A stretch of DNA of 64,000 nt from NCBI GenBank assembly GCA_025774935.1, contig JALGZK010000008.1, forward strand, positions 17,576-81,575. Direction: 5' to 3'. Each line of letters starts with the position of its first letter. Within the stretch, counting starts at the first letter, position 1. Source of the stretch: a bacterium. GTDB taxonomy: Bacteria; Joyebacterota; Joyebacteria; Joyebacterales; Joyebacteraceae. Under the pieces are notes generated by a model. That model made no database searches and was not told the origin of the DNA. It saw only the letters and a list, made by a program, of their open reading frames with translations. Of this stretch, positions 9,728-27,466 are shown one piece after another. A program made the position numbers and the translations under genes.

Positions 9728-9761
9728 GACGTCTCCCTGTGTGTGACGGCGCCCGAGCGCG

Positions 9762-10205
9762 CTACTCGTCGATGATCTTGATCTCGTGCGTGATCGTGGT
9801 CGCCTTCGAGAGGACGTTCCCGAGCGTGCAGTACTTCTCCTCCGAGAGCTTCGCGGCCTTCTCGGCCTTGCCGCGGTCGATGTTCTTCCCGGTGATGACG
9901 TACTCGATGTGGATGCCGTCGTACCCGGACGGCGTGTCCTTGATCGGCCTCGCCTCGGCGTTCACCTCGAACGCGAGCACCTCCTGCCGCATCTTCTGGA
10001 GGATCTCGATGACGTTCATTCCGGCGCAGGCCGCGAGCGCCACGATCGGGAGCTCGGCCGGCCGGTACCCCTTACCCTCGCCGCCCCCCTTGACGCTCGC
10101 GTCGAACTTGATCTCGCGTCCCTCGCCGTCCCACCCGTCGAACTCGAACCCCTTCAACCACTTCACCTTCCCGACGAACATGCTGCTCTCCTCTCTGTGA
10201 TTCAC
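9762..10205 (-). CDS. OsmC/Ohr-family peroxiredoxin-like protein
   Basis: 147 aa with OsmC-like layout and conserved Cys residues (LAACAGMN, KYCTLGN). Confidence 0.8.
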   Translation of the reverse strand: MNHREESSMFVGKVKWLKGFEFDGWDGEGREIKFDASVKGGGEGKGYRPAELPIVALAACAGMNVIEILQKMRQEVLAFEVNAEARPIKDTPSGYDGIHIEYVITGKNIDRGKAEKAAKLSEEKYCTLGNVLSKATTITHEIKIIDE

Positions 10206-12946: not shown

Positions 12947-13708
12947 TTACATCGAATTCGGGTCGACGCCGGGGTGAATCTCGTGGATGTCGATGGAGCC
13001 GTGTTCCTCGTCGTCGTGGTCTTCTTCGTGATCCATGTCCATCTCATCGTCGATGTGCATCTCGATGATGTGCCTCGTGCCGGGCTCGCCCATCATGCCG
13101 CCCATGCCGCAGCCCATCTTGCCCATCATCCTGTGGCCCATCATGCCGCCGCCCATGCCGCAGCCGCCCTTGCCGCCGGTGCCGCAACCCATCCGGCCGC
13201 CCATCATGCCGCCGCAGCCGCCGTGTCCCTTGCCGTGGCCCTTGCCGCCAGCCACGAGATCGCAGAGCTTCATGCAGAGACCGGCGTCGAAGATGGTCTT
13301 CTGGTCCTTGTCGAGGAGCCCGCGGATCTCCTGGTGCTGCTTCAGGCGGAGTTTGACCCTGTCGGTGTGGACCTTCGCGAAGTCGTCGATCTTCTTCTCG
13401 ATGGCCTTGAAGTCGGGCTCGTCCGCGGTGAGGAGCTCCGTCATCTCGATGTTCATCGCCTTCGCTCTGTTCGCGAGGGCGACCCTCTGCGCTTCGTACT
13501 TCTCCTTGATGGCGCCGATCTGCTCCTTCTGCTCGGCCGTGAACTCGGGCATCATGCCCTTGCCGCAACCACCCTTGCCGTAACCGCCCTTGCCGTCGAC
13601 GACGCACATGCGCTTCTCGACGACGCGCTGGGCGACGGCAGGGGCCGCGACGAGCCCGGTGATCGCTACGGTCAGCACGACCGCGATGAGGATGCTCTTC
13701 GTTCTCAT
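12947..13708 (-). CDS. Periplasmic Spy/CpxP/ZraP-family protein with Gly/Met/Cys/His-rich metal-binding-like tail
   Basis: I trimmed the start to ATG 13708, giving the signal peptide MRTKSILIAVVLTVAITGLVAAPAVA. The helical LTxxQ-like core contains FTAEQKEQIGAIKEKYE and LLDKDQKTIF. It has GKGGCGKG and MGGMMGHRMMGKMGCGMGGMMG repeats and an acidic His-rich end (DHEEDHDDEEHGSIDIHEIH). Confidence 0.75.
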   Translation of the reverse strand: MRTKSILIAVVLTVAITGLVAAPAVAQRVVEKRMCVVDGKGGYGKGGCGKGMMPEFTAEQKEQIGAIKEKYEAQRVALANRAKAMNIEMTELLTADEPDFKAIEKKIDDFAKVHTDRVKLRLKQHQEIRGLLDKDQKTIFDAGLCMKLCDLVAGGKGHGKGHGGCGGMMGGRMGCGTGGKGGCGMGGGMMGHRMMGKMGCGMGGMMGEPGTRHIIEMHIDDEMDMDHEEDHDDEEHGSIDIHEIHPGVDPNSM

Positions 13709-13841
13709 GACCTTCTCCCTTACTGGTGGTCGGGTCCCCCGTCTCCCTACTCCTGCCCGACCCTTCTCACACTCTGTCTGATGGACGTCTTCTGTCTTCG
13801 ATTCGGTGAACTCGTTCCGTCGTTCGCACACCCCCCATTCG

Positions 13842-13857
13842 AGCAACCGGTATGCCA
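13842..13857 (-). promoter_or_regulatory. Sigma-54 (-24/-12) promoter for the ZraP-like gene
   Basis: The minus strand reads TGGCAT-ACCGG-TTGCT, with exact GG-N10-GC spacing. It lies ~134 nt upstream of the ATG at 13708 and just downstream of a sigma-54 activator gene. Confidence 0.7.
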
Positions 13858-13972
13858 GCTTCGGTCGCGCCCGTTCCGGTTTCTTGCGAGAGCGACAACG
13901 AGCGTCCGGACTTCACCTTACGCGAGCGTGCGGTGCCGCCGGGGGCCGCCGGTCGTCCTCGGACGCGGCCGC

Positions 13973-14013
13973 CGGTGCGCAGGTCGTTCCCAGAGACCAC
14001 CAGCGGTGCGCAG
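13973..14013 (-). promoter_or_regulatory. Candidate enhancer (UAS): 10-bp direct repeat CGGTGCGCAG x2
   Basis: Identical 10-mers occur at 13973-13982 and 14004-14013, 31 bp start to start. They lie ~120-155 bp upstream of the -24/-12 element. Confidence 0.25.
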
Positions 14014-14039
14014 ATTCTTCACACCCCGCGCTGGCCTCG

Positions 14040-15380
14040 CTAGAGATCGATCCCGTACTCCTTGATCTTGTTCTGGAGGGTCCGCCTGGCGATCCCGAGG
14101 ATCTCGGCCGCGCGCGTGCGGTTGCCTTCGGTCTGTTTGAGGGTCTTCACGATGATGTCGCGCTCGACCTCGCGGATGGTCTTGCCCTCCCCGATGCTGT
14201 CGGCGTCGCCCTCCCCTCCCGCCGCCCGAACCTTCGCAGGAAGATGCTCGGGGAAGACGGTCTCGCCGCGGGAGAGGACGATCGCGCGCTGGATGGCGTT
14301 CTCGAGCTCGCGGACGTTGCCCGGCCAGTCGTAGTTGAGGGCCAGGCGCATGGCCTTCGGTGACATCTTCTTGGGCTTCGTGCCCTGCGAGTGGAGCCTG
14401 AGGAAGTGCTCTACCAGAAGCGGGACGTCCTCGGAGCGGTCGCGGAGGGGCGGAATCGTTATCGACACGACGTTCAGCCTGAAGAACAGGTCCTCTCGGA
14501 ACCGGCCCTCGGCGACCTCAGCCTCGAGGTCCTTGTTGGTCGCGGCGACAACGCGGACGTCGACGGTGATGTCGTTCCCTCCGCCGACGTGCTGGAACGT
14601 GTGGTCCTGCAGGAACCGGAGGAGCTTCGCCTGGAGCGCCGACGACATGTCCCCGATCTCGTCGAGAAAGACCGTCCCGCCGGAGGCGAGCTCGAACCGT
14701 CCCTTCTTCTGGCGGACCGCGCCAGTGAACGCGCCGCGCTCGTGACCGAAGAGCTCGCTCTCGAGGAGCCCCTCGGGGATCGCGGAGCAGTTGACCGCGA
14801 CGAACGGCTTGCGCGCTCGGTTCCCGGAACGGTGGATCTCCTGCGCGACGACCTCCTTGCCCGTCCCGCTCTCGCCGAGAAGGAGGACGCTCGCGTCGCT
14901 GTCCGCGACGCGGTGCGCGACCTCGATGACCTCGCGGAACCCTTCGCTCGCGCCGATGACGCCCCTCGACGGCTCCGCTTCCTCCTCCGCGCTCTCGTCC
15001 GGGGCCGCCGACGCCTCGGCGAACCTCGCGATCACACGGCGCACCTCGTCGATGTCTATGGGCTTGGTGATGTAGTCGAACGCCCCGAGCTTGAGCGTCT
15101 TCACCGCCGTCTCGACCGACGCGTACGCCGTCATCATCACGACCCCGGTCTGGGGCGCGAGCTCGACCATCTGCTCGAGCGCCTGGACTCCGTCGATCCC
15201 GGGCATCCGGATGTCCATGATCACCAGGTCGTGGTAGCCGGACCTGAGCTTCTCGACCGCGGACTCGCCGTCGGGAGCCGTCTCGATCTCGTGCCCGTCC
15301 TCCTCGAGCACGGCCGTCAGGAGCTGGCGCACGCTCGACTGGTCGTCGACGACGAGTATCCGGAGCCGTCCGGCTTCCAT
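14040..15380 (-). CDS. NtrC-family sigma-54-dependent response regulator (ZraR/AtoC-like)
   Basis: Receiver domain (ILVVDDQ...DLVIMDIRMPG), AAA+ domain (GESGTGKEVVA, canonical GAFTGA, FLDEIGDM) and a C-terminal Fis-type HTH. Confidence 0.92.
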   Translation of the reverse strand: MEAGRLRILVVDDQSSVRQLLTAVLEEDGHEIETAPDGESAVEKLRSGYHDLVIMDIRMPGIDGVQALEQMVELAPQTGVVMMTAYASVETAVKTLKLGAFDYITKPIDIDEVRRVIARFAEASAAPDESAEEEAEPSRGVIGASEGFREVIEVAHRVADSDASVLLLGESGTGKEVVAQEIHRSGNRARKPFVAVNCSAIPEGLLESELFGHERGAFTGAVRQKKGRFELASGGTVFLDEIGDMSSALQAKLLRFLQDHTFQHVGGGNDITVDVRVVAATNKDLEAEVAEGRFREDLFFRLNVVSITIPPLRDRSEDVPLLVEHFLRLHSQGTKPKKMSPKAMRLALNYDWPGNVRELENAIQRAIVLSRGETVFPEHLPAKVRAAGGEGDADSIGEGKTIREVERDIIVKTLKQTEGNRTRAAEILGIARRTLQNKIKEYGIDL

Positions 15381-17164
15381 CAGGCCTCCTTCGGGGCTCC
15401 CGCGGAGGGGAGCCGGATCGTGAACGTCGTGCCCTCGCCCTTCGCGCTCGACACGGAGATGTGCCCCCCGTTCCTCTCGACGATCCTCGAGACGATCGTG
15501 AGACCGAGCCCCGTCCCTTCCGGCTTCGTCGTGAAGAACGGGTCGTACAGCTTGCCGAGCTCCTCGTCGGTCATCCCCGCGCCGGTGTCGGAGACGGAAA
15601 CCGCTACCTCGCCACCCGCGATCTTTGTCTCGACCGAGAGCCTGCCCCCGCCCGACATCGCCTCGATCGCGTTCAGGATGACGTTCAGGACCGCCTGCTT
15701 GATCTGCCCGGGGTCGACGAGGGCGTCGGGAAGCTCGCTCCCGAGCGCCGCGGCGAGTTCGACCTTCCGGAACTGCGCGTCCTCGGAGACGAGAGAGATC
15801 ACCTCCCCGACGACGTCGTTGACGTCGGATGGTCTCCGGTCGGGCGCGACGGGCTTCGCGAAGTCGAGGAGCTCTTGGACGACGCGGTCGAGGCGCTCGA
15901 CCTCCTCGATCATGATGTCGGCGTATCGCTCTTCCTGCGAGCCGGGCGTGAACTTGCTGCGCAGGAACTGCGCGAACCCCTTGAGGGAGCTCAGGGGGTT
16001 GCGGACCTCGTGCGCGACGCCGGCCGCCAGACGGCCGAGCGAGGCCAGGTGCCGCTCGCGCTCGACCTCCTCCTTCAGGGCCTCCATCTCCCGCAGGTCC
16101 TGGAAGAGGACGACGGTCCCCGACCTCTCACCGTCCTCGTCGGTGAGCGACGACGCGGCGAGCGCCACTGGGATCGCGTCGCCCCGGCCGCCGATCCTCG
16201 CCTCGGTCTCGAACGTGTCGTCGGCGCCGCCCATCACGCCGTGGACGCCGGCGCGGTCGCCGTCCGCGTCGAACGTCACGACCTCGTCGAACGCCTTCCC
16301 CTCGACGTCGTCGCGGGCGAGCCCGAGCAGGGACCTCGCTCGGGTGTTCACCGTCACTACGCGCGCGTCGGAGTCCACCGAGACGAGCCCGCTTCCCATG
16401 CTCTCGATCACGTTCGTCGTGTACGAGCGCATGTTCGCCAGCGCGGTCCGCACCGAACGGTAGTGCGCCATCAGGAACAGGAAATAGATCGCGATCCCGC
16501 CGACCAGAAGGAGGATGCCCGACATCATGAACGTGTGGTTCCTCGATGCGAGGAACGCGGCCTCGAGCTCGGACGCGTCGAGACCGACGACCATGAACAG
16601 GTCGACCGGGGCGCCAGGCGGGACCGGCGTGCTGAGGAGGCTCCTCAGACGCTCGTGGATGATCTCCTCGGCCTGGATCCGGAAGAGGGACGGCGGACGG
16701 AACCTCGGGCCGCGCCTCGGGAGAGCGCGGAGGAGGGACGCGTACTCGTGGACGTTTCGCCCGTCTTCCTCGGACACGATGCTCGCCATCCGCCGGTCCT
16801 CGGGCGCGGCCAGGAGGACCTCGCGACCCGCCCAGATGGTGCCGACCCGCTCGGGATCGCTGTGCGAGACGATCGTTCCGTCCACGTCGACGATGCCGAT
16901 GTGCGCGATCTCCTCGTGCTCCGCCGCCTGCTGGAGCATGAGGTCGAGCCGCGTGCGGTCCCAGTCGGGCGCCAGGAGGCTCGCCCGGAAGGCGCCCCCG
17001 AGCGACCCGATCGCGAGGCGCGCCTGCCGGCTGAGGACGTCCTCGACCTGCCGCCTCCCCCGCTCGATGTCGCGGAAGGACGTGAAGCCGACGACGAGGG
17101 CGACCATGATGATGCCAACGACGATGGAGGTGATCGGAAGGTAGCTCGACCTCTTCGCGGGCAT
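15380..17164 (-). CDS. Sensor histidine kinase (periplasmic sensor-HAMP-PAS-HisKA-HATPase)
   Basis: I trimmed the start to ATG 17164. It has two TM segments, an H-box (GVAHEVRNPLSS), and N/G boxes (NAIEAM, DTGAGM, GTGLGL). Its stop overlaps the regulator's start codon by 1 nt. Confidence 0.9.
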   Translation of the reverse strand: MPAKRSSYLPITSIVVGIIMVALVVGFTSFRDIERGRRQVEDVLSRQARLAIGSLGGAFRASLLAPDWDRTRLDLMLQQAAEHEEIAHIGIVDVDGTIVSHSDPERVGTIWAGREVLLAAPEDRRMASIVSEEDGRNVHEYASLLRALPRRGPRFRPPSLFRIQAEEIIHERLRSLLSTPVPPGAPVDLFMVVGLDASELEAAFLASRNHTFMMSGILLLVGGIAIYFLFLMAHYRSVRTALANMRSYTTNVIESMGSGLVSVDSDARVVTVNTRARSLLGLARDDVEGKAFDEVVTFDADGDRAGVHGVMGGADDTFETEARIGGRGDAIPVALAASSLTDEDGERSGTVVLFQDLREMEALKEEVERERHLASLGRLAAGVAHEVRNPLSSLKGFAQFLRSKFTPGSQEERYADIMIEEVERLDRVVQELLDFAKPVAPDRRPSDVNDVVGEVISLVSEDAQFRKVELAAALGSELPDALVDPGQIKQAVLNVILNAIEAMSGGGRLSVETKIAGGEVAVSVSDTGAGMTDEELGKLYDPFFTTKPEGTGLGLTIVSRIVERNGGHISVSSAKGEGTTFTIRLPSAGAPKEA

Positions 17165-17308
17165 GCACGCGGCTCCGTGGCGGCGGAGACCCGCGGCCGC
17201 GGGTCCCCTGACTGAACGGGCGTTCTCTTCATTAGACACCACGCGGCGAGCCGAGAGCAAGAGCAAAGCCGGAAGGAGGAGCGAAGCCGGGCGCGGGTGT
17301 CGCGGGCG

Positions 17309-18169
17309 TCAGTACTCGCCGAGCGTGCCCGCGCGCCTCGCGTGGCGATATCCCCACCCGAGCGTGAGGAGCCCGGCCACGAGCGCGGCCGATGCCGTGA
17401 GACCGAGGAGGACGAGCGGACGGACGAGGGACGCCGGGTCGTGGTATCCGGAGAGACCGGCGCGGGCGACGCGGAGGGCGTGCGTGGTGGGAATGAGGGC
17501 GGAGAGCCCCCGGAGCCACGGCGGGAGGATGTCGACTGGGAAGTAGACGCCGCCCAGGAGGCCGGCCGCCGCGCCGAACACCCACGAGACGGGCTCGCCT
17601 TCCTTGGAGACAAGGATGACTCCCGCTGAGACGAGCCCGAAGCCGCACATCGCCGCCGCGTAGAGCACGACGGCCGCCACCGCGGCCAGCGAGAGGCAGA
17701 GCCGAACATCGAGAACGGCCGAGGCGAGAGCCAGAAGCGCCGCTCCTCCCGCGCCTGCGATCGCGAGTTCGCCGAGCCCCGACAGAACCAGGAGCGCCGG
17801 GACCGGGACGCGCGACGTCACGAGGAGCTCGAGCGTACCCTGAAGCTGCTCCCTTCTCACGGTCGCGCGGAACGACGACAGCCCGGCGGCGGCGATGCCG
17901 TGGACGATGACGCCGACGATCACGAACGACGTGTAGCTCGTCCCGTACCGGTCGAGGAACCCGCTGCCGGCGGCGTCGACGACGCGGCCCACGAACGAGA
18001 AAGTGACGAGCGAGAGGACGAGCGACGCGAGCCCGAGCGAGAGCTTCGCCCGGTAGCTCGCGTAGGTCGCAGCGCTCCTGACGACGAACGCCCACGCGAC
18101 GCGGAGGACGGCCGCGAGGGTGGAACCTCTCCAGAGGGCGAGCGCGTCGCCGTGCCCGGCGGCGCTCAC
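17309..18169 (-). CDS. ABC-2-type transporter permease
   Basis: The GTG start at 18169 overlaps the ATPase stop (GTGA). The ~286-aa product has about six hydrophobic helices. Confidence 0.8.
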   Translation of the reverse strand: MSAAGHGDALALWRGSTLAAVLRVAWAFVVRSAATYASYRAKLSLGLASLVLSLVTFSFVGRVVDAAGSGFLDRYGTSYTSFVIVGVIVHGIAAAGLSSFRATVRREQLQGTLELLVTSRVPVPALLVLSGLGELAIAGAGGAALLALASAVLDVRLCLSLAAVAAVVLYAAAMCGFGLVSAGVILVSKEGEPVSWVFGAAAGLLGGVYFPVDILPPWLRGLSALIPTTHALRVARAGLSGYHDPASLVRPLVLLGLTASAALVAGLLTLGWGYRHARRAGTLGEY

Positions 18170-18831
18170 GACCGCATCCCGCTGCCGATGCGGACGACGC
18201 TGTCGCAGCTGGAAGCCTCGGCGAGATCGTGCGTCGCGAGGAGGACCGTGCCGCCGCGCGCTGCCCATCGTGCGAACGCGCGCCGGAGGAGCGTCCGGCC
18301 ATGCGCGTCGACCGACGCGAACGGTTCGTCGAGAACGAGGATCCGGGGCCGAGCGATCATCGCCCGCGCGACCGACAGCCGGGCGAGCGCTCCCCGCGAC
18401 AGCCTCCTCGTGGGCACGCCGAGGCACGCGACGAGTCCGAGCTCGTCGGCCACGCTCTCGATCGCGAGCGCGATCCTCTTTCTCGGGACGTTTTCGAGAG
18501 TCGCGAAGAAAGCGAGGTTGTGGCGCGCCGTGAGCCGCCAGTAGAACGACCGCTTGGTGCCGAGGGAGACGCCGATCATCCTGCGAACGTGCAGGGACTC
18601 CGAGACGACGTTGTGCCCCGCCACCATCGCGAGACCCTCGGTCGGCTCCACGAGCGTCGCGACGATTTTGAGCGCGGTGGTCTTACCGGCGCCGTTCGGT
18701 CCGACGAGCGCCGAGGTCTCACCCGCACCGACGGATAGAGAGAAGGGCGCCAGCGCTTCGGCGGGGCGCCCGCTCTTGCGGTAGACCTTGCGGACGTCCT
18801 CGAGCCTGACCGCGTCGGCGCTGCGGCTCAC
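18166..18831 (-). CDS. ABC transporter ATP-binding protein
   Basis: The GTG start at 18831 overlaps the FG-GAP stop (GTGA). It has Walker A GPNGAGKTT, signature LSRGALARL and Walker B ILVLDEP. Confidence 0.9.
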   Translation of the reverse strand: MSRSADAVRLEDVRKVYRKSGRPAEALAPFSLSVGAGETSALVGPNGAGKTTALKIVATLVEPTEGLAMVAGHNVVSESLHVRRMIGVSLGTKRSFYWRLTARHNLAFFATLENVPRKRIALAIESVADELGLVACLGVPTRRLSRGALARLSVARAMIARPRILVLDEPFASVDAHGRTLLRRAFARWAARGGTVLLATHDLAEASSCDSVVRIGSGMRS

Positions 18832-20249
18832 GAGCCCTCCCCGGCCGTGCGGACGGTCAACCCCGTCGACCAGACGCCCACCCGGCCCTCCCGGAGAGAC
18901 GCGACCACGATCTCCAACCGCCCGTCGCCGTCGAGATCGACGACCGCCACGCCGCCCGAGCCTCCCGCACCGGGCAGGCCCAGCACGTCGACCACGGTCC
19001 CGTCCGCGCCGTCGACCACGAAGACGCGGTCCTTCACGTACGCGACGAGCGCCGAGGCCGCCCCCCCGCCGCTCCCGTACCGCGGCAGTCCGACGGGAAC
19101 GCACCGCTCGACGATCTTGCCGTCCACGTCGAGCCGCCAGAGCTCGCTCCCGGTGCGCGGGTTCCACGCGTACAGGAACCCGTCGCTGCATCCGAAGACG
19201 AGCTCTCGCCCGGGCCCGTCCCGGAGGTCGGCGTCGGCCATGGCGATGACCGGCTCTCCCGTCCGCGCGAGCACCTCCTTCATGCCGCAGGGCACGTCGT
19301 TCCGGGCGACGTGCGCTGCGTGGGACTCCGCGCCGAACGGCACCGTGCGCGCGAGCATCTCCCCGGTCGCTCCATCGAGAAGCACGACCGCCCCTGCGAA
19401 GCACCCGACCGCCACTTCGCGAGCGCCGTCGCCGAGAAGATCGGCGACCACCGGATCGCTGCTCGCGGCGCCTTCGGGGACGAGCGTCCCCTTCTCGCCG
19501 AGGACCGTCCGCCAGAGCGGCTCGCCCGAGGGGGCGAAGCACGCGAGGACGTTCATGTTCTCGACGACGAGCACCTCGTCGAGACCGTCACCGTCGACGT
19601 CCTCGAGCACCGGGCGGCTGAAGCCGTTGTCGAACCGGCCCTCGGCGGCCGCCGCCTCGTTCGTCCAGAGCTCGAGAGACCCGATGACGCCGGCCCCGGC
19701 GCCGTCGCGCATCCCCGCGCCGGACAGCGCGACCAGCGTCTCGTTCCGCTCCTCCCCGACCGTACACACGACGTCCGGGACGCCGTCGCCGTCCAGGAGC
19801 CCGACGGCGATCTCGCCGGCGACCCCGGGCAACCGTTGCTCGGACATCACGTTCCCGCTCGCACCGTCGAGAACGAGGAGCTCGTCCCCGACCGCGGCCA
19901 GGATCTCCGCGCGCCCGTCCGCGTCGAGATCTGCGACGTCGACCACCGCGCGTGTTGCGAATTCCCTGCGCCAGATCTCGACGCCGTCCGCGCCCACGAG
20001 CACTAGATCGCTCGGTTCCTGCCTGCAGCGCCTGACGACGAGGAGATCGACGCCGTCCGAGGCGAACCGCCCCAGCGTGACGACGGTGACCCCGCGGGCG
20101 GGCAGCCCGAGGGGCGTCTCCCGCACGAGCTCGCACGGCGGGAGCCGTAAGGACGAGGCCGCCGCGGCACTCCCCACGGGCGCACCGCCCGCCGCCCCCG
20201 CGGCGACCGCGACCGCCAGGACCGCCTGAACCAGTCTCGCGCGTCTCAT
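18828..20249 (-). CDS. Secreted FG-GAP/VCBS-type beta-propeller repeat protein
   Basis: I trimmed the start to ATG 20249 (SD GGAGGAGGGAG), giving the signal MRRARLVQAVLAVAVAAGAAGGA. It has repeated Ca-binding-like DxDxDG motifs: DLDADGRAEIL, LLDGDGVPDVV, DVDGDGLDEVLV, DLLGDGAREVAV and DLDGDGRLEIVV. Confidence 0.8.
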   Translation of the reverse strand: MRRARLVQAVLAVAVAAGAAGGAPVGSAAAASSLRLPPCELVRETPLGLPARGVTVVTLGRFASDGVDLLVVRRCRQEPSDLVLVGADGVEIWRREFATRAVVDVADLDADGRAEILAAVGDELLVLDGASGNVMSEQRLPGVAGEIAVGLLDGDGVPDVVCTVGEERNETLVALSGAGMRDGAGAGVIGSLELWTNEAAAAEGRFDNGFSRPVLEDVDGDGLDEVLVVENMNVLACFAPSGEPLWRTVLGEKGTLVPEGAASSDPVVADLLGDGAREVAVGCFAGAVVLLDGATGEMLARTVPFGAESHAAHVARNDVPCGMKEVLARTGEPVIAMADADLRDGPGRELVFGCSDGFLYAWNPRTGSELWRLDVDGKIVERCVPVGLPRYGSGGGAASALVAYVKDRVFVVDGADGTVVDVLGLPGAGGSGGVAVVDLDGDGRLEIVVASLREGRVGVWSTGLTVRTAGEGS

Positions 20250-20284
20250 GGTTCTCCCTCCTCCGCCGGCGCCGAGGGGCGGAC

Positions 20285-20455
20285 TCAGTAGTCGAGGTGA
20301 CAGAGGTCGTCGGAAGCGCACCCGGTGACGTCGGACCCGCAGTAGTCGACCGCGCTGCATCCTCCCCAGTCGATGAAGACGCGGCAGATCTCCGTGCCCC
20401 CGGTCCGCCCGGCGCCGCGCCGCGCGACCCCGTTCACCTGCTCGAGATGTCTCAT
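20285..20455 (-). CDS. Putative RiPP precursor peptide P3 (56 aa, 5 Cys)
   Basis: ATG at 20455 is preceded by GGAGAGGGG. Translation: MRHLEQVNGVARRGAGRTGGTEICRVFIDWGGCSAVDYCGSDVTGCASDDLCHLDY. It is a paralogue of P1 and P2. Confidence 0.7.
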   Translation of the reverse strand: MRHLEQVNGVARRGAGRTGGTEICRVFIDWGGCSAVDYCGSDVTGCASDDLCHLDY

Positions 20456-20488
20456 GCGTCCCGCCCCTCTCCTGCCGTCCGTGCCGAC

Positions 20489-20662
20489 CTAGTAGTCGAT
20501 CAGACAGATGTCGTCGTGGCTGCAGTCCGCGAAGTCGAACGCGCACTGATCGATGCTGTCGCAGTCGCCCCAGTCGATGAAGATGTAGCAGGCGAACGGG
20601 ACGCTCGCCATCTGCGTCGTTCCCGTCTCCCGCCCCCCGTTCGCGAGCCTGAGATGCTTCAA
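20489..20662 (-). CDS. Putative RiPP precursor peptide P2 (57 aa, 5 Cys)
   Basis: TTG at 20662 lies 8 nt after GGAGG. Translation: MKHLRLANGGRETGTTQMASVPFACYIFIDWGDCDSIDQCAFDFADCSHDDICLIDY. In the track it is hidden in the tail of shadow ORF 20489..21118. Confidence 0.7.
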   Translation of the reverse strand: MKHLRLANGGRETGTTQMASVPFACYIFIDWGDCDSIDQCAFDFADCSHDDICLIDY

Positions 20663-20700
20663 CCGCACCACCTCCTTCCACTCATCGTCCCCCGCCGAAC

Positions 20701-20880
20701 TCACGTCGTGTCGACGATGCACCCGTCGTGACTGACGCAATCGCTCTCGAAGTCCAGCAACCAGCAGGTGTCCGACACCGCACATCCCGAGTAGTCGACC
20801 AGGCACAGGTCGCGCTTGGAGCGGCCGGCAGTCGGCCCGCCCCCCGGACCCCTGCCGTTCGCAAGCCTCAGGTGCTTCAC
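20701..20880 (-). CDS. Putative RiPP precursor peptide P1 (59 aa, 5 Cys)
   Basis: GTG at 20880 is preceded by GGAGGGGAGGTGG. Translation: MKHLRLANGRGPGGGPTAGRSKRDLCLVDYSGCAVSDTCWLLDFESDCVSHDGCIVDTT. In the track it is hidden in the tail of shadow ORF 20701..21204. Confidence 0.7.
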   Translation of the reverse strand: MKHLRLANGRGPGGGPTAGRSKRDLCLVDYSGCAVSDTCWLLDFESDCVSHDGCIVDTT

Positions 20881-20921: not shown

Positions 20922-23426
20922 TCACCTCCGCGCACGTGACGTCCGCGACTCGCGCCCTGTCGCGATCTCCGGCCTGGCGCTTCCTCTGGCCGCCGCCGCG
21001 AGCGCGCTCCGCTGCTCGTCCGGAAGCGACGCGTAGATCCACATCGAGAGCTCGAAGATCCTCCGCTTGAGCCTGCACCGCGGGGAGTCCGGGCCGACCG
21101 CGTCCGGTCCGACGGCATCCGGCCCGGCGGCGTCCGCGCCGGCCGCCTCGAGGTCGTGCACGCAGGGGCCGCCGCAGAGGTGGACGGCCCAACAGCCGGC
21201 GCATACGTTCACTGCATCTCGGAACCTGCGGAGGATGTTGCCGACCCTCTCGCGGTCCAGACCGCGCTCCACGTCCCCCACCGCGAACCCCGGGTTTCCG
21301 GCGAACCGGTGGCAGAACGAGAGGGCGCCGGAGGGATCGACCGAGACGTACCTCGTCCCCGCGCCGCAGGGCGTCCGCCGGCGCGCACCGGTCTCGAGTG
21401 CGAGTACCGTCTCGGTGAAGTTGCCCGTCGACGGCCGGTCCCCACGCGCGACGGCAGCGAGCTCTCCCTCCGCGAGCTCCTCGAACTCCAGCGCGAGTCG
21501 GTCAGCGAACTCCCGGCTCATCGCGGCGCCGCTCACTGGAGCGAAGTGGACGACGTACAACCCGAGACCGCGAAGGTGCTCCGCGATCTCCGCGAGCGGC
21601 CGCGAGTCCGGCGTGACCGTCGCCCGGGCGCCGACTCTCATCCCTACAGGGAGCTCCCTCAGGTTGCGGACGATCGTGTCGTACGATCCGGTGCCGTCAC
21701 GGAAGACGCGATGGGCGTCGTGCTCCGCGGCACCCCCGTCGACGCTCACAAGAGCGCGCACGCCACTTCCGTGAAGGAACGAAGCGTTCTCCGGCGTAAG
21801 GAGCGTCCCGTTCGTCGTCATGTGGAAGGAGACGGAGCGGCCCTCGGCTCCCGCGCGCCGCCTCGCGTAGTCGACGATCTCTCCGATGAGCGCGGGCTCG
21901 AGGAGCGGCTCCCCGCCGAAGAACACGATCGAGACGCGGGCCTCGCCCGCCGACTCGGAGAGAAGGAGGTCGACGGCGCGGAACGCAGTCGTCCTAGACA
22001 TGCTCGAACCGTCGCGGGCTCCGGGCCTGCCCTCGCGCACGCGTCCCCCCGACGAGAGGTAGCAGTAGTCGCAGCTCAGGTTGCAGCTGTCGGTGAGGCC
22101 GAGGGCGACGGCGGTCAGACCGGACGAGGCTCCGGCCGCGGCCCAGGCGTCGCACGGAGACCTGAGGTCCCCCGGACCGCTCCCCTTCGGCCACGGCTCC
22201 GGGCGCGCGAGCGCCCGGAGCTCACCCAGGACCTCGCCCACGACGTTCTTCCCCGCGTTCATGTTGAGCACGCCGAGCCCGCCGGGATCAGAGCCGGCTC
22301 GGAGCCACTCGACAACGTCCAGGACCGCGGCGTCGGCCTCGAAGAAGAGCCCCGAGTCGACGTCCAGCACGAGACCCCGACTGCGGACCTCGAACGCGTG
22401 GACCTTCCGGGCGAGCTCGGGAGGAACGCGTGCGTCTCGGGTGGGCACGGCCGGCGCGGCGTTCCCCGAAGCGGCCGCGGTCACCGATACGCGTCGCGTG
22501 ACCCATCCGAGCCTCTCCCTCGACTCGTCCCGCCGACGCTCGAGGTGGGAGGCGAGCCCCTCGGCCCCGAAGGCCAGCGCCGCCTCGGCCGCCATCGCGT
22601 AGTGACGGTCGATCTCGCCGGCGACGAGCGCGAGCGTCGCCGCTCCCGCCTGCGAGAGGAGGACGTCCCCCACCCGGCTCGCGGGCGGCGGTTCTTCGAG
22701 GCGCGCCGCGGCGGCGAGCAGCCACGACGGTACGGACCACCGTCCCGCCTCCAGGTCGGCCTCGAGATCCTCGAGGTCGTCCGCGAGCTGGTAGGCGGTG
22801 TGGAACCTGTCGATCACGCTCTCCATCGCGGGAAGCGCGTCGTTCCTCCCGGACAGCGCGGCGACCGCAGCGGGGCACACCTTGAGCGGCGACATCCCAC
22901 GGCCGAGCATCTCGAGCGTCGCGGGAAGCGCGCCCCCCGAGACCGCGTCCCGCCCCTCCGGTGACTCGAGGACCTCCTTCCGCCACTCGAGGCTGGCGAA
23001 ATACTCGCGCAGATACCCCACGAGCGGCTCGACGAAGGAGAAGGCGAACGAGCCGTCCCCGCGGAAGAGCCTCCCGTACTCGAGCATGAAGAGGATCAGC
23101 GAGCGGTCGGAGAGACAGCAGTCCGACGGCGAGGGCCGAGCGTCGCCGTCCATCTCGTCGTCCTGCGCGAGGAAGTGGGCCGCGCCGAACGCGTTCCCGA
23201 GTGCCATGGTCCTCGCGGCGTCGAGAGCGCCCTCGAACGGAAGGGCCTCCGCGAGGAAGAACGGAAGCCTGAGAACGAAGTTGTCCCTCGTGATCCCGCG
23301 CTCGAACGCCGGCGCCCCGGCGGAACCGGAGAGCTCCGGCATGGCGGATCTGAAGCCGATCGCAACGCGGCGCAGTTCGGCGCGGTGGTCGATCGCCGAC
23401 GAGATCGCTTCCGTGGTCGAGCGCAT
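20922..23426 (-). CDS. Radical SAM/SPASM peptide maturase fused to an N-terminal isoprenoid-synthase-like (two DDxxD) domain
   Basis: 834 aa with CxxxCxxC (TDSCNLSCDYC, residues 448-455). The full SPASM pattern is present: CGAGTRYVSVDPSGALSFC, then CAGCWAVHLCGGPC, then a final C. The N-terminal ~330 aa carry FLAQDDEMDGD (res 85-95) and YQLADDLEDLEAD (res 212-224). The start codon is uncertain because no clear SD is present. Confidence 0.88.
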   Translation of the reverse strand: MRSTTEAISSAIDHRAELRRVAIGFRSAMPELSGSAGAPAFERGITRDNFVLRLPFFLAEALPFEGALDAARTMALGNAFGAAHFLAQDDEMDGDARPSPSDCCLSDRSLILFMLEYGRLFRGDGSFAFSFVEPLVGYLREYFASLEWRKEVLESPEGRDAVSGGALPATLEMLGRGMSPLKVCPAAVAALSGRNDALPAMESVIDRFHTAYQLADDLEDLEADLEAGRWSVPSWLLAAAARLEEPPPASRVGDVLLSQAGAATLALVAGEIDRHYAMAAEAALAFGAEGLASHLERRRDESRERLGWVTRRVSVTAAASGNAAPAVPTRDARVPPELARKVHAFEVRSRGLVLDVDSGLFFEADAAVLDVVEWLRAGSDPGGLGVLNMNAGKNVVGEVLGELRALARPEPWPKGSGPGDLRSPCDAWAAAGASSGLTAVALGLTDSCNLSCDYCYLSSGGRVREGRPGARDGSSMSRTTAFRAVDLLLSESAGEARVSIVFFGGEPLLEPALIGEIVDYARRRAGAEGRSVSFHMTTNGTLLTPENASFLHGSGVRALVSVDGGAAEHDAHRVFRDGTGSYDTIVRNLRELPVGMRVGARATVTPDSRPLAEIAEHLRGLGLYVVHFAPVSGAAMSREFADRLALEFEELAEGELAAVARGDRPSTGNFTETVLALETGARRRTPCGAGTRYVSVDPSGALSFCHRFAGNPGFAVGDVERGLDRERVGNILRRFRDAVNVCAGCWAVHLCGGPCVHDLEAAGADAAGPDAVGPDAVGPDSPRCRLKRRIFELSMWIYASLPDEQRSALAAAARGSARPEIATGRESRTSRARR

Positions 23427-23580
23427 GGATGTCCCGAAGGGGATCGTGCCGGGGCGTTCAGCTGGTGGGGACTGGGAAGTGTCGTTTCTGGATGAGGACC
23501 GGCCGGCAGGGCAGTTGCGGGAGAATCATCTGCGTTCCTGCCGGCCGTTGTGGGCCAGCTCCATCCCCAGAAAGGTGAGA

Positions 23581-23596
23581 AGCAAGACGCTGACCA
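23581..23596 (-). promoter_or_regulatory. Candidate sigma-54 promoter B for the rSAM operon
   Basis: The minus strand reads TGGTCA-GCGTC-TTGCT. GG/GC spacing is correct, the -12 element is good and the -24 element is weaker. It lies ~155 nt upstream of ATG 23426. Confidence 0.35.
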
Positions 23597-23978
23597 GAGT
23601 TGCTGCTTAGGATGGAGCCCGCGGAGAACCGCGTTGTGGTGCTGCTTGTGTGCGCGCCTTTCGGTGGGCGCTGACCGTATTCGAATCCTCTGTCTATGTT
23701 GGTTACAGCTCCGGTGCTGATCGAGCTGTGGAGTTCTCAGCCGAGCACGGGCGATGCGATACCGATGAGCAGGATCACGACCATTACCTTTATTCTCACT
23801 CTCGCCGCGCTCGGCATAACTGCTACCTCTATGTCATCTCCCCTGTACTGCTCGAGGAGCCCTAGAGTCCGGAAGAGAGAAGCGAACCAAAGAGCGACCG
23901 GACTCGCCCCCCCTGCTTTGTTAACACCCTGGCCGCCTCTCCCTTCCATATTTAGTTGTCAACTACACCCCCCTCTAC

Positions 23979-23994
23979 CGCATAGGTCGTGCCA
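23979..23994 (-). promoter_or_regulatory. Candidate sigma-54 promoter A
   Basis: The minus strand reads TGGCACG-ACCT-ATGCG. The -24 element is perfect and the -12 element has the conserved GC but flanking mismatches. It lies ~555 nt upstream of ATG 23426. Confidence 0.4.
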
Positions 23995-24373: not shown

Positions 24374-27300
24374 CTACCCGAGACCGTACTTCTTCATCTT
24401 CGCGTGGAGGCCGGTCCTCGAGAGACCGAGGACGTCGGCCGCCGCCTGCTTGTTCCAGCCGGTCCGGGAGAGCGCTTCCAGGATGCGGCTCTTCTCGAGC
24501 GCCTCGACCTCGTTCTTGAGCGAGCGGCGGTGCGGCTCTTCGTCGCCCAGGGTGATCTCATAGCGGTTCCGGAGCTCCGGGCTGATCTTGTCGATCCCGA
24601 TCATCTCCCCGTCGGCGGCCAGCGCGACGCCGCGCCGCACTTCGTTCTCGAGCTCCCTCACGTTGTTCCCGCGCCAGTCGTACCGCTGGAAGATCTCGCG
24701 GACCTCGCGGCTGAACCCGGGGATGTGCTTCCCCTCGCGCTTCGCGTAGAGCTCGCGGAAGTGCTCCATGAGGACCGGGACGTCGTCCGGGCGGTCGCGG
24801 AGAGGCGGCACCTGGATCACGACCGCGCAGAGGCGGTAGAAGAGGTCGCGCCTGAACCGCCCGGCCTTGACCTCCTCCGCCAGGTCCTTGTTGCTCGCGG
24901 AGATGACGCGCGCGTCGCTCGTCCTCGTGACGCTCTCCCCCACCCGGCGGTACTCGCCGTTCTGGAGGAACCGGAGGAGCTTCACCTGGAGCTGCTGGCT
25001 CATCTCGCCGATCTCGTCGAGGAAGAGCGTTCCGCCGGCCGCGGCCTGCACGAGGCCCTCGCGGTCGCGGTCCGCGTCGGTGAACGCGCCCTTCACATGA
25101 CCGAAGAGCTCGCTCTCCTGCAGGTTCGGAGGGATCGCACCCGCGTTCAGCGCGACGAACTTCCCCGTCCGGCTGCGGCCGTCGACGTGGACGGCGCGCG
25201 CGATGAGTTCCTTACCGGTCCCGGACTCGCCGCGGATGACGATCGGGACGTGGCTGTCCTTTAGGCGGTCGATGCTCGAGAGGATGCGCAGCATCTCCGC
25301 GTCGCGGGTGATGAGGCCCGCGTGGTTCGGCGAGTCGCCGAGCTCCTGTGCGAGCTCCCCGTTCTCCCTCCACGCGACCGACTCGCCGACCCTGGAGAAC
25401 GCGAGGCCGAGCATCCGCGACGCTGCGGCGACGAACTCGACGTCACTCTGCGTGAACGGCGCGGGCCGCTCGGACTTCATCCGGTCGGCGTAGAGCAGAT
25501 AAGTCGTGCCGCGCGCACCGCTGATCTCGGCGGGAATGAGGGCCACGGCGCCGACGCCCGGCGCGAAGTAGGCGTCCGCGGAGCGCGGGTCGCTCACGAT
25601 GAGCGGCCTCGTGTGTCCGCGGTTCCCGACGGTCGTGCGCACGAAGCGGGTGACCTCGGCCACCCCGCGTCCCGTGCGGTCGACCGACGTGGCGACGGCG
25701 GGACCGGTCTCCTCCGTGAGCGAGTAGAGGACCAGGCGGTTGGCCGGGACCGACGCCGCGATCTCGTTCGCGAACTCGTTCAGGTCCTCCGGCTTCGGCT
25801 CGGTCGTCTCGAGGAACCGGTACCCCTCGGCGATCGTGGAGTAGCGTCCCTGGCGCGAGACGCCGGCCTCCTCGAGCTCCGCGTCGAGCTCCTTCAGGAT
25901 GGCGTCGATCTCGGCGAGGCCCTCGCTGTCGTGGCTCACCTCCATCTTGAGGCGCGCCCGGTCGAGCCACGTCCTCGCCCGGTCGAGCTGGCCGCCACGC
26001 TGGAGTGCCTTGCCGCGCTCGAGCTCGCAGCGAGCCACCCAGTCGCCGGCGCCGATCCTCGTGAAGATGGCCTCGGCGGCGGAGAACCGCGCCTCGATCC
26101 TGTCCACGGGGAGGTCGCCCGGAGGCGACGAGTCGCGCATGCCGACGGCGTCGGCGAACGCGGTCTTGGCGGTCTGGAACGACTCGCCGGTCCTGCGAAG
26201 CATGTCCTCGGCGCGGTTCACGAGGACCTCGGCGGCGGTCCGCTCGCCCTTGGCGTAGCAGATGCTCGCGAGGACCCTCAGGAACGCCCCCTCCTCGAGC
26301 CTGTCGCCCAGCTCGCGGGAGAGCTTCACGCCGTCCGAGCAGTCGCGCTCGGCGTCCTCGATCCTGCCGAGCGTGAGGAGCGCCTCGGCGCGCCTCCGGA
26401 GGACCTCCCCGACGACGTCGCCGTTCGAGGCGAGGCGGTACGCGCAGCCGAGCGCCCTGTCCAGCGTCGCGAGAGCCTGCTCGTACTCGCCCTGGTCCAT
26501 CTCCAGCTCGCCGATGTACTCGAGCGCGAGCGCCTCAGCCCTGAGATACCCCTTCTCCCTCGCCACGCGGAGCGCGTTCTCGAAGAGCTCGCGCGCCCGG
26601 CCCGTTTCGCGGCGTACGCGGTACACGTTCCCGAGCGCGGTCTTCGCGGCGACGAGTCCTCGGACGGCGCCGATCCGCGAGTACGTCTCCTTGGCCTCGG
26701 TGAGCATCTCCTCCGCTTCCGCCCATCGAGACAGGCGGTAGAGCGTGATGCCCACGTTCGTCAGGCGATCGGCGATCGCCATCGAACGCCCCTGCTTCCG
26801 GTCGAGCTCGAGCGCGCTCTCGAGGTACTCGAGGGCGCCGTTCAGGTCGCCGGTACGCTTGGCGAGAATGCCGAGGTTGTTGTAGGCCGCAGCGAGGCCT
26901 GACTCGCTCGCGAGCCTCTTCTGGGAGACGAGATAGTCGGTGAAGTAGTCCCTGGCGGCCTCGGTGTTCCCGATCTCGGCGTTCGCGATGCCGAGCATCT
27001 TGCCTGCCTCAGCCAGAAGATGGCTGTCGGGACTGGTCCTGAGTGCGTCGTACGCCTTCTGAGCCGCGCGCAGCGCTTCTTCGTAGCGCCCGCTCTCGAT
27101 CTCGATCCTCGCGAGGACGACGTTCGCCTCGGCCCACGACGTCGCTTCCTCGTCCTCGAGCTCCAGATCGTCGAGCTTCGCGCAGTGTGCTCTCGCCTTG
27201 ACGTAGTTGCCGAGCCCCAGGTGGCACTTCGCGATCCGGACGCAGAGCCCCGCTACCTCGTCGTCGGAGAGCGTGGAACCCAGCTCTTCGCCGGCGGCGC

Positions 27301-27466
27301 GGCTGAAGTACCCGAGCGCGTCCGTGTAGCTGTCGGACTCGAGATAGACGTCGCCGAGTCGGATCGCGGTCAGCGCGGCTTCCCGCGCGCTCCGCGACTC
27401 CATTGCTCGGCGAAACGCCTCGAGCATCTCGCGTTCGGGCTTATCGTCCGGTCGTCGTTCAGCCAC
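24374..27466 (-). CDS. TPR-repeat / GAF / sigma-54-interaction-domain transcriptional activator
   Basis: 1030 aa. The ~500-aa N-terminus is TPR-like repeats, followed by a GAF-like segment. The AAA+ domain has GESGTGKELIA, a variant GAFTDA loop and FLDEIGEM. The C-terminus has a Fis-type HTH (AADVLGLSRTGLHAKMKKYGL). Confidence 0.9.
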   Translation of the reverse strand: MAERRPDDKPEREMLEAFRRAMESRSAREAALTAIRLGDVYLESDSYTDALGYFSRAAGEELGSTLSDDEVAGLCVRIAKCHLGLGNYVKARAHCAKLDDLELEDEEATSWAEANVVLARIEIESGRYEEALRAAQKAYDALRTSPDSHLLAEAGKMLGIANAEIGNTEAARDYFTDYLVSQKRLASESGLAAAYNNLGILAKRTGDLNGALEYLESALELDRKQGRSMAIADRLTNVGITLYRLSRWAEAEEMLTEAKETYSRIGAVRGLVAAKTALGNVYRVRRETGRARELFENALRVAREKGYLRAEALALEYIGELEMDQGEYEQALATLDRALGCAYRLASNGDVVGEVLRRRAEALLTLGRIEDAERDCSDGVKLSRELGDRLEEGAFLRVLASICYAKGERTAAEVLVNRAEDMLRRTGESFQTAKTAFADAVGMRDSSPPGDLPVDRIEARFSAAEAIFTRIGAGDWVARCELERGKALQRGGQLDRARTWLDRARLKMEVSHDSEGLAEIDAILKELDAELEEAGVSRQGRYSTIAEGYRFLETTEPKPEDLNEFANEIAASVPANRLVLYSLTEETGPAVATSVDRTGRGVAEVTRFVRTTVGNRGHTRPLIVSDPRSADAYFAPGVGAVALIPAEISGARGTTYLLYADRMKSERPAPFTQSDVEFVAAASRMLGLAFSRVGESVAWRENGELAQELGDSPNHAGLITRDAEMLRILSSIDRLKDSHVPIVIRGESGTGKELIARAVHVDGRSRTGKFVALNAGAIPPNLQESELFGHVKGAFTDADRDREGLVQAAAGGTLFLDEIGEMSQQLQVKLLRFLQNGEYRRVGESVTRTSDARVISASNKDLAEEVKAGRFRRDLFYRLCAVVIQVPPLRDRPDDVPVLMEHFRELYAKREGKHIPGFSREVREIFQRYDWRGNNVRELENEVRRGVALAADGEMIGIDKISPELRNRYEITLGDEEPHRRSLKNEVEALEKSRILEALSRTGWNKQAAADVLGLSRTGLHAKMKKYGLG

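Follow-up and report, generated by a model that had tools for sequence, protein, structure and literature searches.

A conserved family of Cys- and Asp-rich peptides and its fused radical SAM maturase, a probable ranthipeptide-type system of Candidatus Eisenbacteria

Peptide genes downstream of a radical SAM gene

We analysed a 64,000-nucleotide (nt) stretch of contig JALGZK010000008.1 from assembly GCA_025774935.1 (hereafter the window), in which three small open reading frames (ORFs) follow one another on the minus strand between the stop codon (20922) of a gene for an 834-aa radical S-adenosylmethionine (SAM) protein and the ATG start codon (20249) of a gene for an FG-GAP β-propeller. A preliminary description of this DNA had placed the ORFs there and read them as precursors of a thioether-bridged peptide family, and its translations of the three peptides, P1 to P3, are identical to those that we re-derived. 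The start codons, GTG, TTG and ATG, are each preceded by a GGAGG-type Shine–Dalgarno (SD) sequence 8–9 nt upstream. Each peptide has five Cys, spaced as first described (C-x6-C-x5-C-x8-C-x5-C in P1 and C-x8-C-x5-C-x6-C-x5-C in P2 and P3), and an Asp follows every Cys after two to four residues. The statement that the ORFs had gone uncalled was mistaken: on a 104,401-bp contig, the NCBI and JGI/IMG gene calls include P1, P2 (as a 71-aa call) and P3 exactly, none of them with a name. The peptide genes and the gene of the 834-aa protein, referred to below as the maturase, are laid out as follows.

20701..20880, minus strand: P1, putative precursor of type A; 59 aa, GTG start, leader MKHLRLANG, variable linker, core pattern C-x2-D-Y..C-x3-D.C-W-x2-D....C-x3-D.C-x2-D-T-T
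20489..20662, minus strand: P2, putative precursor of type B; 57 aa, TTG start (71 aa in the public call, which has a longer start), core pattern C-Y-I-F-I-D-W-G.C-x3-D-Q-C-x-F-D-F..C-x3-D.C-L-x-D-Y-COOH
20285..20455, minus strand: P3, putative precursor of type C; 56 aa, ATG start, a rarer type-B paralogue that keeps five C..D pairs
20922..22118, minus strand: radical SAM core and SPASM domain of the maturase, residues ~437–834 (Pfam Radical_SAM, NCBIfam and CteB alignment)
22119..22406, minus strand: leader-binding region of the maturase, resembling a recognition element (RRE) of ribosomally made peptides with post-translational modifications (RiPPs), residues ~341–436 (alignment with CteB and with the QhpD and SCIFF-maturase models)
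22407..23426, minus strand: N-terminal all-alpha domain of the maturase, residues 1–340, with a trans-isoprenyl diphosphate synthase fold (AlphaFold2 (AF2) and Foldseek)

The window has a GC content of about 67% and spurious ORFs are abundant on both strands; the existence of an ORF therefore says little, and conservation was the test that was needed. Among the frames that we rejected as GC-rich artefacts are the plus-strand ORFs overlapping the peptides and a 617-aa ORF (18828..20681, minus strand), which arises because the propeller frame stays open for 432 nt beyond its ATG and runs over P2 and P3 in another frame. We set the propeller start at 20249 on the basis of homologue alignments and the signal peptide; the longer open frame could mislead automatic annotation.

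Scans of genomes and metagenomes with an alignment of the maturase yielded 22 loci of its family (L001–L008 and L079–L092), and the peptide counts cover 19 of them, in which the sequence continues downstream of the maturase. In all 19, small ORFs of the same architecture follow the maturase stop codon, each with its own SD and start codon. Type A is the first peptide in every one of these loci and type B the second in 18; type C comes after type B in L006 and L079, which brings it to three of 20 places (the window and the 19 loci), and it also occurs in close relatives. ORF, start, SD and order are kept across loci although maturase identity is only 40–57%. Type B is absent from the divergent locus L083, where the sole peptide gene (5968..6147, plus strand) is a type-A variant with the near-invariant Trp replaced (CILVD), followed by the propeller with no type-B gene in between.

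A profile of the peptides matched 142 clusters in a collection of 5.8 billion proteins, and among the matches listed the five C..D pairs are kept in 120 of 120 clusters (about 63 of type A and 57 of type B); the cluster containing P3 has six members. When 32 unique peptides of the three types are aligned, the invariant columns are Met1, the five Cys and the five Asp, and no others. Within type A (78 unique sequences; consensus C-x2-D-Y, C-x3-D, C-W-x2-D, C-x3-D, C-x2-D-x-x), the five Cys, the five Asp and the Tyr of the DY motif are invariant and Trp is present in 77. Type B (72 unique sequences, giving about 150 for types A and B together) follows the consensus C-Y-I-F-I-D-W-G, C-x3-D-(Q/E), C-x-F-D-F, C-x3-D and a C-terminal C-L-x-D-Y, with Trp in all sequences if a one-residue register shift is allowed in four of them; Tyr is also conserved in the cores of both types. 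The motifs are spaced CX2D, CX3D, CX3D, CX3D, CX2D in type A and CX4D, CX3D, CX2D, CX3D, CX2D in type B, so that CX3D accounts for three of the five motifs in type A and for two in type B, the remainder being CX2D or CX4D. The leader M(K/R)HL(R/K)xANG is common to all types, and its Asn at position 8 occurs in each of the three window peptides and in most, but not every one, of the 32 that were aligned.

The preliminary description had proposed a profile search, an analysis of co-occurrence with maturase homologues and a comparison of nonsynonymous and synonymous substitution rates (dN/dS) over syntenic loci as checks on its reading, and the outcome of each favours that reading. Beyond the 142 clusters, peptides and maturase are always together in the 19 loci, and core dN/dS is 0.29 for type A and 0.22 for type B (pairwise Nei–Gojobori (NG86) estimates, with synonymous sites near saturation), values in the range of 0.2–0.3 that indicate purifying selection. 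Core identity is 48–61% in type B, compared with 40–57% for the maturase. We conclude that P1 to P3 are real genes under purifying selection and that the selected feature is the Cys-then-Asp pair. They belong to no curated family: searches of Pfam and NCBIfam (E up to 1 for NCBIfam, whose library includes the SCIFF families) gave no match to P1–P3, and at E up to 10 the peptide profile matched none of the chains in the PDB sequence set, among them QhpC if it is deposited there. We accordingly dropped homology to QhpC, CteA or SCIFF peptides, which is undetectable in these PDB, Pfam and NCBIfam searches.

Domain content of the maturase

The C-terminal half of the maturase is a radical SAM/SPASM enzyme (Pfam Radical_SAM, E = 1.8e-15). 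Its CX3CX2C motif (C448-NLS-C452-DY-C455) is invariant in 27 homologues, as are seven SPASM Cys (C687, C705, C742, C745, C751, C755 and C784), whose spacing matches that of C344, C362, C400, C403, C409, C413 and C432 of CteB, in which three Cys ligate auxiliary cluster (AC) 1 and four ligate AC2 (PMC10177961). CteB (5wgg) is also the best solved relative (E = 2.9e-42), in an alignment that spans maturase residues 341–757. Because this alignment begins at residue 341, with residues 341–436 facing CteB residues 6 to ~100 and the QhpD and SCIFF-maturase models from position 2 onwards, we take this region to be the counterpart of the leader-binding RRE, a role assigned by analogy with CteB and QhpD.

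Among NCBIfam models, PapB (NF047865) scores best against the maturase (E = 2.5e-76, 257 bits, curated cut-off 340), followed by QhpD (TIGR03906; E = 1.1e-74, 251.8 bits, cut-off 453), the nif11-type maturase model (E = 6.4e-62, 210 bits, cut-off 518.7) and the SCIFF maturase (TIGR03974; E = 6.8e-49, 166.9 bits, cut-off 425). As the scores fall below the PapB, QhpD and SCIFF cut-offs, we treat the protein as a separate family. It has about 30 full-length relatives among the 5.8 billion proteins, the named ones from metagenome-assembled genomes (MAGs) of Candidatus Eisenbacteria; the next-best loci carry QhpD-like genes that are 29–40% identical over the C-terminal half only.

The chemistry of the two best-scoring families is known. 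PapB joins the Cys sulfur to the Asp C-beta in six CX3D motifs; it needs the Cys to be N-terminal to the Asp, accepts CXnD with n = 0–6 and probably relies on a conserved Asn of the leader (PMC9413430), and the substrate chalcogen binds an auxiliary cluster (PMC10177961). QhpD forms three thioethers from Cys to Asp or Glu in QhpC (PMC7876137). The C-x2-4-D pairs of all peptide types at our loci lie within the range of n that PapB tolerates. Thus, the two closest characterised enzymes both form Cys–Asp/Glu thioethers, which is what the peptide invariants predict, and the maturase is likely to work like PapB and QhpD, yet it is a member of neither family.

The first 340 residues, passed over in the preliminary description, form a further domain. 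Its AF2 model is all-alpha (predicted local distance difference test (pLDDT) score 82, predicted template-modelling (TM) score 0.83), and the top 50 Foldseek matches in the PDB are all prenyl diphosphate synthases or prenyltransferases with a probability of 1.00 (TM scores 0.5–0.7, up to 0.62/0.70; best E = 3.4e-4; 14–18% identity to prenyl diphosphate synthases), among them Escherichia coli octaprenyl diphosphate synthase (OPPS), IspB-like enzymes, MoeN5 and Ord1. The domain is conserved in all members of the maturase family; invariant residues include R72, D89, D93, K182, Y212, Q213, D216, D217, D220, D224 and R229. The segment Y212-Q-L-A-D216-D217-L-E-D220 is invariant and reproduces the canonical FQxxDDxxD of the second Asp-rich motif (SARM), and Q-D89-(D/R)-x-x-D93-G-D resembles the first (FARM), with D89 and D93 invariant and DDEMD in the window; the AF2 model places both at the C-terminal ends of long helices, as in prenyl synthases. 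A profile of the domain matched PDB sequences weakly (E = 0.1–1.6), and ten of the 11 matches are polyprenyl synthases, the best-scoring of which align at the SARM.

An exhaustive HMMER search showed that this N-domain belongs to a large unannotated family with 774 representatives (E up to 1e-3), many of them stand-alone proteins of ~320 aa and others fusions of ~750–850 aa or proteins of ~1,100 aa. In a sample of 44 relatives, 13 carry a thioether-type radical SAM/SPASM region, five carry a squalene-hopene-cyclase-like domain, three match Terpene_syn_C_2 and two match polyprenyl_synt. Matches of some relatives to TIGR04119 ('CXXX repeat peptide maturase') were discarded, as they map to the SPASM region. 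Among the ~1,100-aa proteins are triple fusions with the squalene-hopene-cyclase-like domain, one of which (P0208; L160, 173..3526) precedes an Rce1-like CPBP protease and a polyketide synthase.

Peptides with related patterns also stand beside more distant enzymes. Downstream of the distant fusion P0200, from a lower-GC organism and scoring 275 bits against the PapB model (cut-off 340), a 61-aa peptide (L159, 2895..3080, plus strand) has the leader RHVRLVN and the core CNCETSDTCSIVDFGSGCGEIDSCGVDYT, ending in CGVDYT; its resemblance to the window peptides extends the peptide logic beyond the Eisenbacteria clade. Long proteins with many tandem C-x3-D repeats lie next to PapB/QhpD-like radical SAM genes in a Brocadiaceae MAG (L014, 2039..2893, plus strand; twin-arginine-like N terminus) and an Acidobacteriota MAG (L037, 8307..8999, plus strand), and may be a further kind of substrate, as yet unexplored, for enzymes of this clade. 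A 56-aa peptide of Lysinibacillus boronitolerans with abundant C-x2-3-D motifs (…WCVFCDAKDYCNKCDAMDWGC…; L012, 5465..5635, plus strand), just upstream of a PapB-like radical SAM gene, is probably a freyrasin-type ranthipeptide of Firmicutes.

Operon partners and regulatory region

The peptides are part of a larger conserved gene order. In every locus with enough sequence, a sigma-54 activator with tetratricopeptide repeats (TPR) is followed by a 5′ leader region, the maturase, types A and B (sometimes C), a propeller, an ATP-binding cassette (ABC) transporter ATPase and an ABC-2 permease. The genes downstream of the peptides in the window are these.

18828..20249, minus strand: exported beta-propeller with FG-GAP/PQQ-like repeats and an N-terminal signal peptide (Pfam); cluster-specific
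18166..18834, minus strand: ABC transporter ATPase with Walker A motif GPNGAGKT; conserved position, start approximate
17309..18170, minus strand: ABC-2 type permease (Pfam ABC2_membrane); the ORF extends to 18427, with the start probably near 18170

The propeller is present in 16 of 16 loci with enough sequence, and its family comprises about 36 homologues, several of which share contigs with the maturase family. The AF2 model of the propeller, built with database homologues, has a pLDDT of 87 and a generic likeness to BamB/YxaL-type propellers. We considered a specific relationship to QhpB and rejected it, as a PDB sequence search and Foldseek returned generic BamB, YxaL and designed propellers; likewise, tblastn of the propeller against 136 QhpD-type loci gave one marginal match. 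The N-domain and these propeller and ABC partners, which the preliminary description had not noted, may alter the final product.

Upstream of the maturase lies an intergenic region of ~950 nt in the window (1–1.2 kb in the loci), and beyond it the activator gene.

23980..23994, minus strand: sigma-54-type promoter TGGCACGACCTATGC (GG-N10-GC), ~555 nt upstream of the maturase start
23470..23955, minus strand: putative structured 5′ leader, with a long hairpin (23955..23862) and conserved GC-rich stems at ~23618..23558 and 23546..23500
23737..23817, minus strand: leader ORF MPSAARVRIKVMVVILLIGIASPVLG, 26 aa (24–26 aa across sequences), one predicted hydrophobic helix, AGAGG-type SD
24374..27466, minus strand: TPR-domain sigma-54 enhancer-binding protein without a receiver domain (Pfam TPR, Sigma54_activat, HTH_8)

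A regular-expression search found TGGCAC-N5-(A/T)TGC at the equivalent place in nine related loci, and in 11 of 11 aligned sequences, L002 and L004 included, neither TGGCAC nor the downstream TGC varies. A possible second, weaker sigma-54-like site, TGGTCAGCGTCTTGC (23582..23596, minus strand), ~155 nt upstream of the maturase start, keeps the GG-N10-GC spacing and is conserved in nine of the 11. The leader ORF, between promoter and maturase, occurs in 11 sequences (the window and ten loci) and changes mostly at third codon positions; in the same 11 sequences, a 30-nt block within the hairpin (23916..23887) is 100% identical. An Rfam scan of the operon leader gave sub-threshold chance matches and no known RNA family. 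Compensatory changes in the stems are few, so RNA structure is suggested by the sequences at most, and the region may be an undescribed cis-regulatory leader RNA. In all loci whose sequence extends upstream, the enhancer-binding protein is adjacent and 67–82% identical; it is the likely activator of the promoter at 23994.

A further set of genes, syntenic with the peptide cluster, lies downstream of it at 12947..17266 (minus strand). Its products are a histidine kinase, a sigma-54 response regulator of the NtrC type and a periplasmic LTXXQ/Metal_resist protein, whose gene is preceded by a sigma-54-like site of its own (TGGCATACCGGTTGC, 13843..13857, minus strand). We considered the kinase and response regulator as regulators of the cluster and rejected them, because the LTXXQ gene and this site fit a separate, ZraPSR-like envelope or metal stress module, which is probably independent of the peptide cluster.

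Proposed pathway, its alternatives and known relatives

The reading of P1–P3 as precursors of ranthipeptide type, put forward in the preliminary description, gains support from their conservation, their linkage to the maturase, the RRE-like region, the CX3CX2C motif, the seven-Cys SPASM domain and the best scores to PapB and QhpD. The C-x3-D repeat proteins of L014 and L037 and the peptide of L159 agree with it. We propose that the locus probably encodes a new family of this type, in which the RRE reads the leader, the radical SAM enzyme puts five Cys–Asp thioethers into each peptide, types A and B are co-produced and the product leaves through the ABC-2 transporter. In this model, the sigma-54 promoter, probably driven by the TPR activator, would transcribe the structured leader with its 26-aa ORF, the maturase, the peptides, the propeller and the ABC exporter. 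The leader M-(K/R)-H-L-(R/K)-x-A-N-G would dock onto the RRE-like region of the 834-aa maturase, and its radical SAM/SPASM part would link each Cys sulfur to a carbon, most likely C-beta, of the Asp 3–5 positions downstream. As in PapB and QhpD, the route would run through hydrogen abstraction by a 5′-deoxyadenosyl radical, while auxiliary cluster 1 binds the Cys thiolate. The outcome would be up to five small in-line rings per peptide; both the thioether chemistry and this topology are read from the sequences and are probable. Types A and B would be produced side by side at roughly 1:1 and therefore probably act as a pair, and the ABC-2 transporter would carry the product to the compartment of the cluster-specific propeller.

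Three observations weigh against this proposal. The maturase scores below the curated cut-offs of PapB, QhpD and SCIFF, and its chemistry could differ from theirs, with another carbon or acceptor. The cluster contains no leader peptidase. In addition, conservation of the cores equals or exceeds that of the enzyme, which is unusual for antimicrobial RiPPs; together with the dedicated exported propeller, this conservation points to a fixed molecular partner rather than a weapon. Elsewhere in the window, ~9 kb from the cluster and on the same strand, lies a TldD/PmbA metallopeptidase pair (7009..8370 and 8357..9961, minus strand). Because such pairs process some RiPP leaders, it is a candidate for the missing peptidase.

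The N-domain raises the possibility of a second reaction. It would probably bind a prenyl diphosphate through its Asp-rich motifs and may add a further modification, perhaps a prenylated Trp or Tyr, in the manner of ComQ and PalQ, isoprene-synthase-fold enzymes that prenylate Trp in ribosomal peptides (PMC10853753). The fold and motifs, this precedent and the conserved Trp and Tyr of the cores make an isoprenoid-dependent step plausible, although we regard it as rather less likely than not. The second Asp of the FARM is Arg in most members, the domain has no match in Pfam (polyprenyl_synt included) or NCBIfam, and Trp is absent from the type-A peptide of L083 and from two of three type-C peptides. 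We likewise give a low probability to the full scheme in which a bifunctional 834-aa protein would install five Cys–Asp thioethers and an isoprenoid on the same peptide, giving a lipidated, penta-cyclic, two-component (A+B) ranthipeptide which, once exported, would cooperate with a dedicated beta-propeller in the periplasm, and in which the 774-member domain family would represent a large hidden class of terpenoid–RiPP hybrids fused to thioether-forming radical SAM enzymes.

The same chemistry could serve a different product fate, with the stapled peptides as exported subunits or ligands of the cluster-specific periplasmic propeller. The model for this is quinohaemoprotein amine dehydrogenase (QHNDH), in which QhpC receives its crosslinks from QhpD, leaves through the ABC transporter QhpF and joins the propeller subunit QhpB, and the radical SAM enzyme, small Cys/Asp/Trp peptides, exported propeller and ABC exporter of our loci parallel qhpD, qhpC, qhpB and qhpF (PMC7876137). 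QhpD is level with PapB as the closest characterised family, the nearest out-group loci are QhpD-like, the propeller and maturase families are equally small and occur on the same contigs, and the peptide cores are unusually conserved. However, the window genes that we scanned include no QhpA (dihaem cytochrome), QhpG (flavoprotein) or QhpE (subtilisin), the propeller is unlike anything in the 136 QhpD-type loci and has its generic BamB/YxaL likeness, the peptide profile finds no PDB chain, and the Trp varies. On this evidence, we regard a QHNDH-like fate as unlikely.

A further alternative is that P1–P3 are Cys/Asp-rich metal-binding or disulfide-rich peptides, which the radical SAM enzyme ignores or modifies with a sactionine (C-alpha) or other, non-thioether crosslink. 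Metal could be chelated by the five Cys and the abundant acidic residues, the cluster has ArsR-type and ZraPSR-like genes (LTXXQ, sigma-54 two-component) on its flanks, and the maturase lies beneath every curated family cut-off. Nevertheless, the invariant Cys-then-Asp order at fixed short spacing is the substrate logic of PapB and QhpD (PMC9413430) and does not resemble a metal site, the peptides are never parted from the maturase in the 19 loci, recognition by an RRE would suit the leader motif and its conserved Asn, and the metal-related genes look like a separate module, which together make this reading improbable. Lastly, that the ORFs are untranslated chance frames, of which high-GC DNA yields many, several of them across the peptide region on both strands, is effectively refuted by ORFs, starts, SDs and order that persist at 40–57% maturase identity, by the dN/dS of 0.2–0.3 with invariant Cys and Asp columns, and by 142 independently called clusters.

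The thioether chemistry of our proposal is what a specialist would expect, because the adjoining enzyme is PapB/QhpD-like. What is new is the precursor family and the maturase architecture in an uncultured phylum; the thioether logic was known already. The system is found only in metagenomes and MAGs, Candidatus Eisenbacteria where named, and literature searches, with subscription-only papers outside their coverage, returned no description of it. Few ranthipeptide chemistries have been characterised, and PapB is now used as a tool for making thioether-stapled peptides. The family adds naturally paired precursors with five invariant Cys–Asp pairs, of mixed ring size if stapled, and a maturase architecture unmatched by curated protein-family models or the searched literature. 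Its surprising element is the fused isoprenoid-synthase-fold domain and the large family to which it belongs, seen in fold and motifs: should the domain be catalytic, radical thioether formation and isoprenoid chemistry would be combined in one polypeptide, with hundreds of related fusions unexplored. The conserved cores and the exported propeller suggest a partner-dependent role (signal, cofactor-like subunit or envelope function) over that of a classical bacteriocin.

The closest known system is that of freyrasin from Paenibacillus polymyxa, with which our loci share an RRE-bearing radical SAM/SPASM maturase, a precursor of repeated Cys-Xn-Asp motifs with Cys before Asp, a conserved leader Asn, the best NCBIfam score (to PapB) and the expected S-to-C-beta(Asp) thioethers (PMC9413430, PMC10177961). 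They differ from it in having five motifs of mixed spacing (x2, x3 and x4) rather than the six CX3D of PapA, two or three precursors per locus, the extra 340-aa isoprenoid-synthase-fold domain, the propeller and ABC-2 partners, and Candidatus Eisenbacteria rather than Firmicutes as their source. QhpD and QhpC resemble our loci in that a radical SAM/SPASM enzyme forms several Cys-to-Asp/Glu thioethers in one small, leader-held polypeptide, with ABC export and a beta-propeller partner encoded in the operon (PMC7876137), and the second-best score, to QhpD, covers the RRE. By contrast, our loci lack QhpA, QhpE and QhpG and have a propeller unrelated in sequence, and their ~35-aa cores with short C-x2-4-D motifs differ from QhpC, a subunit of ~80 aa with a cysteine tryptophylquinone (CTQ) cofactor.

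With SCIFF (six-Cys-in-45; the thermocellin-type CteA–CteB system), the common ground is the homology to CteB over RRE, radical SAM and SPASM, the seven-Cys pattern and a highly conserved core; the maturase, however, scores 167 bits against a cut-off of 425 and the peptides have no NCBIfam match. CteB and Tte1186 link Cys to Thr, not Asp. ComQ and PalQ share with the N-domain the isoprene-synthase-superfamily fold and one or more Asp-rich motifs (PMC10853753), and the conserved Trp of the type-A and type-B cores could be the acceptor here. The likeness is at the level of fold only, and in our loci the domain is fused to a radical SAM maturase; ComQ is without a SARM, whereas the N-domain keeps the canonical motif.

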